From a bacterium (lineage in GTDB: Bacteria; Patescibacteriota; UBA1384; CAILIB01): a stretch of DNA of 64,000 bases. This document shows, piece after piece, positions 20,017 to 32,203 of the stretch. The position numbers and the translations under genes were made by a program. The stretch covers positions 701,465-765,464 of the forward strand of contig JBAXRQ010000001.1 in the NCBI GenBank assembly GCA_037131105.1, in the 5' to 3' direction. The first letter of the stretch is position 1. Every line of letters starts with the position of its first letter. The notes below the pieces were generated by a model that saw nothing but the letters and a program-made list of their open reading frames with translations, was not told the origin of the DNA and did not search any database.

Positions 20017-21831
<1,815 letters not shown>

Positions 21832-21927
21832 AATAGAGTACAAATAAAAAATGGGCCGATAAAGACCGGTTCTTAGGTCGACCTGACTATAGCCTAAACC
21901 TGAGAAAATGTCCAGGCTTATACCCAA

Positions 21928-27651: not shown

Positions 27652-28190
27652 GACAAAGCACTCTTTACTATCCACACAATTGTGCCGATAGTGTCGGGCG
27701 AATAGCCATCCGGACACCGACAAACCAAGCCGAAGCTCGAATTATCGATGCCGGACAGCATCCACCGCAGATTTTGAAGGCGTTCAGCAAAAGCCAAACA
27801 TTGCCATCACGGCCTGAGCCGTGATCTGGCCATCCCTGCAACCAGGGAAGTTAATTCCAGAAATTACCCGTCACCCTGACGACAGGATGCACCTCTTGCG
27901 AGGTATCTCCTGTCACCATAGGAGTAAAAGTATATGATCAATTAGTACTCCACGGCTGAAACTGTTGCCAGTCTTACACCTAGAGCCTATCAAGGTCGTT
28001 ATCTACAACCGATCTAGAAATCTAATCTTGTGGCCGGCTTCCCGCTTATATGCTTTCAGCGGTTATCCGAACCTAACGTAGCTACCCTGCACTGCCGTTG
28101 GTACGACAACAGGCACACCAGAGGTTAGTCCCCCTCGGTCCTCTCGTACTAGAGGGAGGCCCACTCAAATTTCCGCGCCCACAGAAGATT

Positions 28191-28242
<52 letters not shown>

Positions 28243-28255
28243 TGGCGAACAGCCA

Positions 28256-28286
<31 letters not shown>

Positions 28287-28302
28287 CGACGAGCCGACAT
28301 CG

Positions 28303-28646
28303 TACTATTTTCCAGGATTTCGCCTGGCGCAGACTATATCTTGTTCCTACACTTCGATGGTAGGCCTTCATAAGACACCGTACATAAGTGTCTAAGCCAA
28401 TGATCGTAAGTTTTTGCTGTAGGACTCGGCGTGTTAGCTCTCTAAAAGAAGAAAGCTCTGCTCTTTCGAGCAAGTCGTTACGGGGTCATGCCTCTTGCGA
28501 GACAGACTTCCCACGGTATCGCCCTTGTGCCATAGATAGCGTTTTATCCACGTCTATCTTATGGTCAGTCGGGATTCACCGTTATAAGCCGAATTTTTGG
28601 TATAGGATTACTCCTAAAGCACCCCAATGTTAAATTAGGTGCCAAA
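28303..28646 (-). other. ORF-less ~345-nt intervening sequence in 23S between the equivalents of E. coli U2500 and C2501, in the peptidyl-transferase centre; intron or IVS of undetermined class
   Basis: The flanks GGTTTGGCACCT and CGATGTCGGCTC are contiguous in E. coli 23S. The insert begins AAUUUAACAUUGGGG and ends GGAAAAUAGUA, so there is no canonical terminal G by this alignment. The only ORFs (28189-28473, 28388-28633) run into exon sequence or are antisense. Confidence 0.6.
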
Positions 28647-28679
28647 CCGCGCCGTCGCTGTGGACGCTTGGGCGCGATC

Positions 28680-28710
<31 letters not shown>

Positions 28711-29164
28711 ATGATCGACGCGAATCTCACACTAACGCGTCGGTTCACTACTGCCTACTTTCGTATCTGCTCGGATCGTAGTCCTTACAGTCAAGCTAGC
28801 TTCTGCAGTTGCACTTTGAAGCCTGATTTCCATCCAGGCTAAGCTAACCTTTGCACGCCTCCGTTACCATTTAGGAGGCAACCGTCCCAGTTAAACTACC
28901 CATCAGACACTGTCCTCAGGTCATTACCCTAAGTTAGTATACGTCAAATACAAGAGAGGTATTTCACATTGCGTCTCCACCTCACCCGAAGGCAAGGCTT
29001 CAAAGACTCCCTCTTATGCTACGCATGCATACAACATATACAATGCCAAACTATAGTAAAGCTCCACGGGGTCTTTCCGTCTTTCTGTGGGTAAACGGCA
29101 TCTTTACCGCTATTGGAATTTCACCGATGTCCTCGTTGAGACAGTGTTCAAAACCGTTATGCCA

Positions 29165-29206
<42 letters not shown>

Positions 29207-29925
29207 ATAGGACCGTTCATCAATGTTACGCACAATTGCTTGTGGGCCAGTTATTTCTAACTGACACTGCATGTCGCCATGCAGATCGGACTATATCATC
29301 TCAAGCCTGGCTTGAGTTCGGCGTGTAGTCTCTGAGGATTCCAATCGAAACGAATTTAAGATTTCACCCGAAGTAAACTTGCGTTTGCCTCCGGCATTCA
29401 TGGACTCTCTAGCTTCTAATAACCGCTGCAGTCCCGCTTTGGTTAAATGAGTTTTAGAAAACACCATGTCCGCGATAATGCTGAACACTTCAAAGTCTTT
29501 TCGCTTTTTAGTCTTAAGAGAATACGTTTTAAAGAAGGGAATGATGATATCTCTCAGATCTGTAAAATTACAGACTTCGAAATATCCTACTCCGTCCTTG
29601 CGGAAACGAATTGTCCCACATTCCAAAGTCTCTTGCAGCATCCGAAGGATGTTACCGTCCTTTTGGGATATGTTGAATGACAATCCAACTTTCCACCCTA
29701 TTCCATATGACCGTTTGCGAAAGGAAACATTGAAGCTTCCTTCACCATCAGTAAAACCGACAATATACCAAGCCATATCGGCCGATATCTTTGCAAAACG
29801 CTCAATTGGCCTTTCCTGCTGATTGTCTGCACTTAACGCGTTATCACTGTCATCCATAAATGAATGTTAGTAGCGTAAGATACTCAGATGTTCCAGCAAA
29901 TAGCCAAATTTTATAACTACAATGG
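29207..29925 (-). mobile_element. Group I intron in 23S helix 69, after the equivalent of E. coli U1917, carrying a homing-endonuclease gene
   Basis: The 5' exon ends GGCGGCCGTAACTAT (U) and the 3' exon resumes AACGGTCCTATGGTAGCGAAATTCC. The insert is 719 nt, and its last nucleotide is G (…CAUUGAUG), as expected for a group I intron. Confidence 0.75.
29291..29857 (-). CDS. LAGLIDADG homing endonuclease, single-motif type, encoded inside the 23S intron
   Basis: 188 aa with YIVGFTDGEGSF (the LAGLIDADG motif) near the N-terminus. Its size fits homodimeric I-CreI-like enzymes. It is in the same orientation as the rRNA. Confidence 0.85.
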   Translation of the reverse strand: MDDSDNALSADNQQERPIERFAKISADMAWYIVGFTDGEGSFNVSFRKRSYGIGWKVGLSFNISQKDGNILRMLQETLECGTIRFRKDGVGYFEVCNFTDLRDIIIPFFKTYSLKTKKRKDFEVFSIIADMVFSKTHLTKAGLQRLLEARESMNAGGKRKFTSGEILNSFRLESSETTRRTQARLEMI

Positions 29926-31275
29926 TCAGTTCATAGTTACGGCCGCCATTCACCCGGGCTTCGGATCAAGCCTTGATGTTATCTCAGCTCTCCCCTTAAC
30001 CTTCGGGCATTGGGCAGGCATCACCCCCTATACATCCTCTTGCGAGTTAGCAGGGAGCTAAGTTTTTGCTAAACAGTCGTTTGAACTCTTTTACTGTGGA
30101 TCAGCTTGCGCTGATCAGTCCTTATCCCGAAGTTACGGACGTTGTTTTGCCGAGTTCCTTAACGAGGATTCTATCGATCACCTTAGTCTACTCGACTCAC
30201 CCACCTGCGTCGGTTTGCGGTACGGATCTGTGCCTTAAGTCTCGGACCCTTTTCTAGTCACCTTCGCCCCCACTGTGAACATATCCATAGCACACAGTGA
30301 GCTAAAAAATGCGTCAGGCCGGACATACAACACAAAGTTCAGGAATATTAACCTGATGTCCATCGACTTCCCCCTTCGGGTACGCCTTAGGACCGACTAA
30401 CCCAGGGACGATTAGCGTTGCCCTGGAAACCTTGGGTATGCGGTGGGCAGGTTTTTCACCTGCCAAATTCGTTACTCATGCCAACATTCTCACTTCTGTA
30501 CGCTCCACGTCGGTTTCCACCTTCGCTTCACTGCATACAGAACGCTCCTCTACCGACAGTCATTGACGAATCAACAACTGCCCCGCGTCTTCGGCACAAT
30601 GCTTAGCCCCGTTAAATTTTCGGCGCATGACTTCTTAAATAGATCAGTGAGCTGTTACGCACTCTTTAACTGATGGCTGCTTCTAAGCCAACAGACTGAC
30701 TGTCTTGGAAATCACACAACCTTTTCCACTTAGCATTGATTTAGGGGCCTTAGACGGCGATCTGGGTTCTTTCCCTTTTGACTATGAAGCTTAGCCCCCA
30801 CAGTCTGACTCTGTAACTCAAAGCTGGTCAGAATTCGGAGTTTGGTTGGGTGCAAGAGGCGAACCCCCTACGACCCATTCAGTATCTCTACCTCTGCCAG
30901 AAGCATTACAGGCTATACCTAAATATATTTCGAGGAGAACCAGCTATCTCCCGGTTCGATTGCTATTTTAGCTCTTACCACAAGTCATCCCGCAGCTTTG
31001 CAACGCTGCCGAGTTCGGTCCTCCCGCCCCTTTTACGGAGCGTTCAACCTGCTCATGGCAAGCTCACCGGGTTTCGGGTCTAGTGGCACGGACTACATCG
31101 CCCTATTCGGACTCGCTTTCGCTACGCCTCCAGGATAAACCCCTTAGGCTTGCCCGTACCAGCTAACTCGTTGGCGCATTCTACAAAAGGCACGCCGTCA
31201 CCCGTCCGAAGACAGGCTCCGACCTCTTGGAAGCAAACATGGTTTCAGTACTATTTCACTCCCCTCACCGGGGTG

Positions 31276-31312
<37 letters not shown>

Positions 31313-32203
31313 ATCTTGCAATGTATTTAGCCTTGGAGAGTGATCTCCCCAGATTCCCACCGGATTTCACGTGTCCAGTGGTACTCAGGTACCGTATCAA
31401 GGAGTCTAATGTATTTCGCTTACCGGGCTCTCACCGTCTATGGCCGTCCGTTCCAGGCTCATTCAGCTATACAAAAGATTTCTTACTCCTCGGGATATCC
31501 CCATACGGCCCTACAACCCCGCTATGATAAATCATGCGGTTTGGGCTGTTCCGCGTTCGCTCGCCACTACTAACGGAATCTCGTTGATTTCTATTCCTCG
31601 TGGTACTTAGATGTTTCAGTTCCCACGCTTACCATCACTACGGATTCGCACCGTAATGTACACCTTAAAGGTGTGGGTTACCCCATTCGGAAATGTCCGG
31701 ATCAAAGCTCTGTTGCCAGCTCCCCGAACCTTATCGCAGGCTCATACGTCCTTCATCGGCATTGCAAGTCAAGGCATCCACCATGTGCTCGTAACGTACC
31801 TTTCTCCTTGAAACATGTCATTGCTGACACATTTCAGGTGACGGGTAATTTCTAGAATAAACTAGGAATCACTCCGCTACTCTCCACACTTTGCAAAGTG
31901 TGGGGCATGAGTAATTTCTGGAAACACATGCATCTCTGCATGCACCCCCGACATTGCTGCCAGAGGATTTTGCCGTTTTACCTTCAAAATCTGATTGTCA
32001 AAGAAATCGATACTTCCGAACTTGCGTCCGGACAACCAGCTCAGAGTGACTCTGAAACGGCATGTCCGCCTGCAAACAAATAAAAAAGAGCGACGAGGTA
32101 GTTGGTATGTACGTACGTTCGCTCGCGAGAGTGGGCCGTTGCTCACTCGATGTCATGATAGCGCACCTGAACGGTGCCTAGAGCATTTCCTGCGTGCCTA
32201 CTT

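Follow-up and report, generated by a model that had tools for sequence, protein, structure and literature searches.

The 23S rRNA gene in the 64,000-nucleotide stretch of bacterial DNA analyzed here (positions 701,465 to 765,464 of contig JBAXRQ010000001.1, assembly GCA_037131105.1; hereafter, the window) is interrupted inside the peptidyl-transferase center (PTC) by a 334-nt insert, and this insert, a group I intron with the architecture of subgroup IA, ends in A. The terminal guanosine of group I introns, omega-G, is taught as invariant, with one and the same pocket binding the free guanosine in the first step of splicing and the terminal G in the second. The intron in the window does not end in omega-G. 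To our knowledge, outside the family described here a terminal A (omega-A) is known in only one intron, in Coxiella. What is new here is thus the presence of omega-A, previously a single-case variant, in an intron family at this site of the 23S rRNA, while the group I class itself is known.

The host 23S rRNA gene extends from position 27922 to 31806 of the window on the minus strand, as do all its elements described below, and it matched the Rfam model RF02541 with 2338.8 bits over model positions 1–2925. By a scripted count, it is 3885 nt long with both of its introns and 2836 nt long without them. In a pairwise alignment with the E. coli 23S rRNA, two big insertions were found in the 3′ half of the gene, one after U1917 and the other between the equivalents of U2500 and C2501 (site L2500), where the original prediction, made from the letters of the window, had placed it. 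The flanks of the L2500 insert read ...GGUUUGGCACCU before it and CGAUGUCGGCUC after it, corresponding to U2500|C2501 exactly, and both flanks are contiguous in about 40 intron-free 23S loci among the matches listed. The 5′ end of the insert reads AAUUUAAC, and its 3′ end reads AAAAUAGUA. Neither boundary can be slid, as the last exon base is U against the final A of the insert, and the first insert base is A against the C of the 3′ exon. With the boundaries fixed in this way, and a canonical mature rRNA assumed, the terminal intron base is A28303. The intron occupies positions 28303–28636. The insertion predicted originally is therefore real, but its upper end, given as 28646 (about 345 nt), was 10 nt too high and took in the exon bases UUUGGCACCU. 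As a separate observation, the Rfam alignment of the large-subunit (LSU) rRNA over positions 28200–28750 puts the last ~25 intron bases, GCGAAAUCCUGGAAAAUAGUA, onto the 3′ strand of the helix that precedes the PTC strand, so that an automatic annotation relying on that alignment alone misplaces the intron boundaries.

The L2500 insert is far from a chance sequence. Its minimum free energy (MFE) of −112.7 kcal/mol, calculated with ViennaRNA, corresponds to a z-score of −5.04 against shuffles, and the Rfam group I model Intron_gpI (RF00028) aligned with it over the full model (1–253) at 28646 to 28311, with 40.4 bits and E = 5e-8. Moreover, a covariance model (R1) built from nine relatives of the intron, with the window left out, gave one match only in the 64 kb, namely a full-length one at 28644 to 28295 of the minus strand, with 203.6 bits and E ~1e-68. 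Apart from group I, a search for other RNA families in the insert at E up to 10 returned only spurious miRNA-type matches and nothing of group II, and so group II introns, intervening sequences and other RNA families were rejected as candidates. That the insert is not a group II intron had been predicted, and indeed it begins with AAUUU, not with GUGYG. The prediction that it holds no credible open reading frame (ORF) was borne out as well: the two ORFs that overlap it (94 aa with a TTG start and 81 aa with a GTG start) had zero Pfam matches, and a coding function of the insert was rejected.

The secondary structure of the intron was drawn by hand, checked by script (88 pairs) and counted on an alignment of ten ORF-less L2500 copies (alignment A2). 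Standard pairs made up 86.2% of 782 cells, and this share dropped to 34–43% when the 3′ partners were slid by 1–3 columns. Double-sided changes were found in 45 of the 88 pairs, and the observed values were reached by none of 500 shuffles. Most of the compensatory changes sit in P2, P3, P4, P8 and P9, while in the same ten copies P1 and P7 are invariant and P10 is variable on one side only. The MFE fold, which is ignorant of the drawn scheme, recovered P2, P3, P4, P5, P5a, P6, P6a, P7.1, P7.2, part of P8, and P9.

The elements that define the splice sites could be assigned at both ends of the intron. P1 is formed by the 5′-exon strand GCACCU (28637–28642) and, on the intron side, by GGGUGC, the internal guide sequence (intron positions 13–18; 28619–28624). 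In this helix the last exon base, U2500, makes a U·G wobble with G13 at the 5′ splice site, and 100% of the P1 cells are paired in the ten homologues. Directly beside the P1 guide, the strand ACAUUG (intron positions 7–12; 28625–28630) forms 6 bp with CGAUGU (C2501–U2506; 28297–28302), with which the 3′ exon opens; this is P10 (95% of cells paired). As P10 starts at C2501, the 3′ splice site must lie at A334|C2501. Upstream of this site, the last three intron bases, GUA (28303–28305), in which A28303 is the omega position, pair with the J7/9 strand UGC (28329–28331) to form P9.0, which covaries across the homologues.

Between these ends lies a complete group I core. The P2 hairpin (UAGGA-GUAA-UCCUA, 28603–28616) has a GNRA loop and shows double compensatory changes in 5/5 pairs. 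The 5′ strand of P3, UUCGGC (28588–28593), pairs with GCCGAG (28425–28430), with three pairs changed on both sides, and P3 and P7 (GACU/AGUC) together form the classical pseudoknot. In the P4-P5-P5a-P6-P6a domain (28482–28581), the proportion of paired cells is 100% for P4, 100% for P5, and 98.6% for P6/P6a. The 5′ strand of P7, GACU (28473–28476), contains in G28476 (intron G161) the G of the guanosine-binding G–C pair, which is invariant in the ten aligned introns, both A- and G-ending. Its partner C28332 (C305) belongs to the hallmark motif of the group I core, formed by J8/7 and the 3′ strand of P7 (ACAAGAUAU-AGUC, 28332–28344) and conserved in the homologues; the role of this G–C pair in guanosine binding has been described (PMC2588497). 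The J8/7–P7 motif of the insert, AAGAUAUAGUC, matches the Rfam consensus AAGAUAUAGUCU, and the motif ACAAGAUAUAGUC comes after a long P8, which consists of a 7-bp base (UCCUACA/UGUAGGA) and an extended arm (28345–28424; 96.7% of cells paired, five double-changed pairs). The P9 hairpin, CCAGG-CGAAAU-CCUGG, follows at 28312–28327 (98% of cells paired, four double-changed pairs). Two further hairpins, P7.1 (UGCUC-GAAA-GAGCA, 28472–28459) and P7.2 (8 bp, 28457–28436), which show partial covariation, occupy positions 28436–28472 between P7 and the 3′ strand of P3, and it is because of them that the intron is assigned to subgroup IA. Clearly, the class of the insert, which had been called unclear, is group I, as its P1 with the U·G pair, P10, P3–P9, G-binding P7, P7.1/P7.2 and at least 18 homologues inserted at this very position, of which two exceed the Rfam threshold, all indicate. 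The original prediction had named a clean group I match with shifted boundaries as the result that would overturn it; a group I match was obtained, but the 3′ boundary does not shift.

Relatives of the intron were collected by two pattern scans (genome_contigs and metagenome_contigs) on the exon and guide, with loose patterns that were then filtered; the raw matches consisted mostly of ordinary 23S variants, with GGGGGUG downstream, and of unrelated genes. At least 18 other complete introns were found at exactly L2500, with both exons present, and two of them, in the loci L051 (57.1 bits) and L141 (50.5 bits), exceed the Rfam gathering score. The longer relatives (810–1001 nt) encode proteins of 150–214 aa, and the proteins of three relatives, when scanned, all matched LAGLIDADG_2 (PF03161) with E values of 1e-40 to 1e-43. 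The L2500 family is a family of mobile LSU rRNA group I introns, and the copy in the window is its ORF-less derivative, in which no intron-encoded homing endonuclease was found among its ORFs and Pfam matches. A scan of viral_contigs yielded only truncated, organelle-like copies.

Among the matches listed, the final base is A in 6/19 and G in 13/19 complete L2500 introns, a ratio that rests on a small sample chosen by the 5′ guide pattern. The A-ending introns are that of the window and those of L216, L210, L042, L160 and L206. The end in A instead of G, which the original prediction had read from the exon alignment, thus recurs in five further contigs, and a shift of the boundary by 1–3 nt that would give a terminal G is impossible without altering universally conserved PTC bases. 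The 3′ domains of the A- and G-ending groups are collinear. In both groups, P9.0 joins J7/9 to the last 3–4 intron bases, and the final base faces the U that follows P7. For example, the A-ending L210 reads AGUC-UACAC-[P9]-...AUGUA|, and the G-ending L051 reads AGUC-UACAC-[P9]-...GUGUG|; similarly, the G-ending L192 has UGCG.../...CGUG|, and the window has UGCG.../...AGUA|. Within the A-ending introns, P9.0 covaries as UGCA/UGUA, UACA/UGUA and, in L206, UAUG/CAUA. Judged from these sequences, the terminal A is neither a miscall nor the product of a 2-nt insertion, and the simplest history is an omega G-to-A transition that converted a U·G opposition to U–A.

Apart from omega itself, only position −4 (column 642) separates the two classes among the ungapped columns. 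The P7 strands GACU/AGUC, including G161:C305, are unchanged in all ten aligned introns, and no compensating change was found either in the P7 pocket or in the rest of the core of the A-ending introns. The A-ending introns are mutually 68–84% identical over 197 ungapped core columns, and in a rough neighbor-joining tree they cluster, with one G-ending intron (L011) nested within. Among the loci listed, the host exons nearest to those of L160 and L206 are from metagenome-assembled genomes (MAGs) of Planctomycetales/Pirellulales, and those nearest to L210 are from Uhrbacteria, while L042 is a Saccharibacteria MAG. The host gene of L160 is intact (full-length LSU, 2517.7 bits). As diverged copies occur in several lineages, in host 23S genes that are otherwise intact, the omega-A feature is therefore old, shared, and present in apparently working genes. 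Additionally, the A-ending introns (295–472 nt) are without an endonuclease ORF in 6/6 cases, and the G-ending introns have an ORF of at least 150 aa in 8/13 cases among the matches listed; the losses of omega-G and of the homing gene coincide in this sample, in which the copies are related and the statistic is not independent.

The most probable reading, to which we assign a probability of about 0.75, is that the ORF-less group I intron is removed by guanosine-initiated self-splicing with an omega-A second step, as is reportedly the case for the Coxiella burnetii intron Cbu.L1917. By analogy with other group I introns, P1 would arise from the guide GGGUGC and the exon GCACCU and place U2500·G at the splice site, and a free guanosine docked on G161:C305 of P7 would then attack the bond after U2500. 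Thereafter, P10 (ACAUUG:CGAUGU) and P9.0 (UGC:GUA) would position the 3′ splice site within the active site, where the 3′-OH of U2500 would attack the A334–C2501 bond and restore the canonical GGCACCU-CGAUGUC of the PTC. Because the terminal base is A and the guanosine-specific pocket is unchanged, the two splicing steps would use different purines. Exon ligation would be expected to be slower than in the G-ending relatives, or to lean more on P9.0/P10 or on a helper protein. The original prediction, in our judgment, was right that the insert has to be removed for the ribosome to function. The excision mechanism, which it regarded as an open question, is not wide open, since the intron is of group I, and the question narrows to exon ligation with omega-A.

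Several points weigh against this reading. What the sequences show directly is the structure, the homology, the exact junctions and the recurrence of the terminal A, whereas splicing, ligation and their rate are argued from homology. The Rfam score of the window intron misses the gathering threshold (40.4 versus 50 bits), and at gathering cut-offs nothing is reported inside the 23S gene; we attribute this low score to long peripheral insertions in P5, P7.1/P7.2 and P8. The G-binding pair is a standard G–C pair, which should disfavor the docking of A, and in the Tetrahymena intron an omega G-to-A change reportedly blocks exon ligation unless the pocket is changed too (a result attributed to Been and Perrotta in 1991). 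The lack of an endonuclease ORF in all six A-ending copies among the matches listed would also fit slowly decaying elements, and the host may possess a second, intron-free 23S copy. The engineered Tetrahymena ribozyme, in work attributed to Michel et al. in 1989 and to Been and Perrotta in 1991, is said to have revealed a joint action of omega and the P7 pocket, with omega-A being ligated if the pocket accepts it. However, the G–C pair of the pocket was mutated in that work, whereas the A-ending L2500 introns keep G161:C305 with no compensating change.

A more far-reaching reading, which we regard as rather unlikely, is that omega-A has become fixed in an ORF-less L2500 lineage spread over CPR-like (candidate phyla radiation) and Planctomycetes-like hosts, with the G pocket kept. 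If ligation were efficient in this lineage, P9.0, extended by the U–A pair of the last base, and P10 would mainly select the 3′ splice site, which would amount to a relaxation, in nature, of a rule held to be universal. If the exons were not ligated, ribosomes would run with 23S rRNA that is broken or interrupted inside the PTC.

That the intron undergoes only the first step, or splice-site hydrolysis, with the exons left unligated, is improbable. The 23S rRNA would then consist of two base-paired pieces split at U2500/C2501, like the 23S rRNAs fragmented at intervening sequences (IVSs) but inside the PTC. A terminal A facing an unchanged G-specific pocket should indeed handicap the second step, and fragmented bacterial 23S rRNAs are known from IVSs processed by RNase III (PMC4990558). 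However, the 6-bp P10 and the covarying P9.0 are kept in the A-ending introns, which is sensible only if the 3′ site continues to be offered to the ligation step, a break at the universally conserved single-stranded PTC segment is not known, and the Coxiella omega-A intron was reported, as far as the title of the 2007 paper tells, to be self-splicing. Bacterial IVSs occupy helices 25 and 45, and their removal involves no ligation (PMC4990558 and PMC11270868). The L2500 insert resembles them in being an ORF-poor 23S insert that needs removal. IVSs form a long terminal stem. An IVS was rejected as the identity of the L2500 insert, which lies in a single-stranded PTC segment, has ends that the MFE fold joins by just 2 bp, and contains a complete ribozyme core.

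Similarly improbable is the view that another, intron-free rRNA gene serves the host and that the intron, impaired in splicing, is decaying as a relic in a 23S copy that is not essential. The loss of the endonuclease ORF from 6/6 A-ending copies among the matches listed would suit such a relic, and the host may have more than one rRNA gene copy. Against this, the gene is otherwise a high-scoring 23S of full length, its PTC flanks are canonical, and every core helix is retained through compensatory changes in the six A-ending introns, whose hosts belong to different phyla. Moreover, by its TypA protein, the closest relatives of the host are of the CPR type, and the host itself looks like a CPR-type small genome; such genomes usually have a single rRNA operon.

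Still less probable is retention of the unspliced intron in the mature rRNA, a situation reported for the L1931 intron of Simkania negevensis. For this there is a precedent in the work of Everett et al. 1999, whose title speaks of 'An unspliced group I intron in 23S rRNA...'. In the window, though, a 334-nt structured insert would part the bases lining the peptidyl-transferase pocket (A2503–U2506 are in the 3′ flank), and retention is at odds with the intact P1, P10 and catalytic core. Taken together, cleavage without ligation, a relic, and retention are disfavored because P10 and P9.0 are conserved and the host genes are intact.

Two last alternatives concern the terminal base itself, and both are effectively excluded. 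The true omega could be G28305 (...UAG|UA), in which case the mature rRNA would keep an additional UA or the 5′ splice site would be shifted as well, and five of the six A-ending introns among the matches listed do end in GUA. However, the intron of L206 ends in ...ACAUA, with no G at this place and with the J7/9 partner changed in step (UAUG/CAUA), so that the G is a P9.0 partner and not omega. In addition, P10 begins exactly at C2501 and abuts P1, other registers would add or change universally conserved PTC bases, and the tail of the G-ending relatives is likewise ...GUG, their G standing in the column in which the A-ending introns have A. An assembly or sequencing artefact, that is, a chimeric insertion or a miscalled last base in a short-read metagenome contig, fares worst of all, since the same intron family, site and both exons are present in at least 18 other contigs of independent projects, five of them with terminal A, and the flanking protein genes are present on three contigs of the collection.

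The closest known counterpart of the L2500 intron is one of the two self-splicing introns of the Coxiella 23S rRNA, which, according to the title of the paper by Raghavan et al. (2007, J Bacteriol 189:6572), 'lacks the canonical omegaG'. This intron, Cbu.L1917, and the L2500 intron of the window are both bacterial 23S group I introns without omega-G, and the 23S rRNAs of both hosts carry two group I introns. A 2009 follow-up study reportedly described Cbu.L1917 as a 'natural splice mutant' with a terminal A that uses a different nucleoside in each step, guanosine first, and splices slowly. However, Cbu.L1917 is inserted at L1917, in helix 69, whereas the intron of the window is inserted at L2500, in the PTC. 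Cbu.L1917 is also said to be of an IB-type subgroup, whereas the intron of the window has the IA-type P7.1/P7.2, and there is no detectable sequence relationship between the two beyond the core. Additionally, the Coxiella case is that of a single species, whereas the terminal A at L2500 occurs in at least six diverged introns in hosts of more than one phylum.

The second intron of the host gene, a group I intron of 715 nt (29218–29932, minus strand), occupies the very site of the Coxiella omega-A intron, L1917, and yet ends in G. Its P1 pairs AACUAU with GUAGUU and includes a U·G wobble, and its 3′ end reads ...UUGAUG, with a normal omega-G. It encodes a 188-aa LAGLIDADG_1 endonuclease (29291–29857, minus strand; PF00961, E = 4.9e-22), and the Rfam group I model matched its 3′ part with 32.9 bits. 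As the site and subgroup differ, and as the L1917 intron of the window ends in G, the terminal A at L2500 is independent of that of Cbu.L1917; common descent of the two was rejected, the site being L2500 and not L1917, and the subgroup being a different one.

In architecture and in its targeting of domains IV/V, the L2500 family is like the LAGLIDADG-encoding IA introns of organellar and bacterial LSU rRNA (e.g., Cbu.L1951 and CPR 23S introns). ORF-containing and ORF-less copies share one site in both, while the copy in the window differs in combining the lack of an ORF with a terminal A. The original prediction had proposed a comparison with catalogues of 23S insertions. According to a 2024 survey in J Bacteriol (PMC11270868), CPR group I introns are clustered around the PTC, including at sites new for bacteria, and on this basis an intron at the PTC site of the window is to be expected. 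No paper on further omega-A introns, and none naming site L2500, was found in the literature searched, the coverage of which is incomplete.

Related introns were observed at other sites as well. The R1 model scored 128 bits on an L1951 intron in L106 (6395–6715, minus strand), which is inserted after ...CUUGUCGGGU and ends in G, and at least four group I introns interrupt the 23S gene in L070. Thus, related IA introns are present at several 23S sites in these genomes. The peripheral P5, P6 and P8 loops of the introns in L206 (464–935) and L160 (3140–3568) contain short repeated motifs, GCAGATT... and GGCTAGT..., respectively, which look like tandem repeats expanding inside the intron.

Outside the 23S gene, the window contains a 5S gene (27652 to 27536) downstream of it, and no 16S rRNA or tRNA gene was found within the whole 64 kb, so that the rRNA genes appear to be unlinked, with 23S and 5S standing alone. 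A TypA/BipA gene lies at 20017–21927 on the minus strand; its product is 100% identical to MEI6478112.1, and the next matches (at most 77%) are from Patescibacteria, Berkelbacteria, CPR2 and Chloroflexi.

What interrupts the PTC in the window is thus a normal kind of element, and no new excision system has to be invoked for it. For the annotation of rRNA introns in metagenomes, it follows that boundaries should be set by the exons and not by a terminal G. The A- and G-ending relatives with the same P9.0 constitute a natural series for the study of the second splicing step. The authors of the Coxiella study are said to have treated its omega-A intron as a curiosity tied to the slow growth of the pathogen. 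Omega-G is near-universal rather than absolute, one published self-splicing member, going by the title of its description, lacking it. Because a second, unrelated family at another 23S site has the same substitution in six diverged copies distributed over several phyla, our results suggest that the loss of omega-G has been tolerated repeatedly, and has perhaps even been selected.

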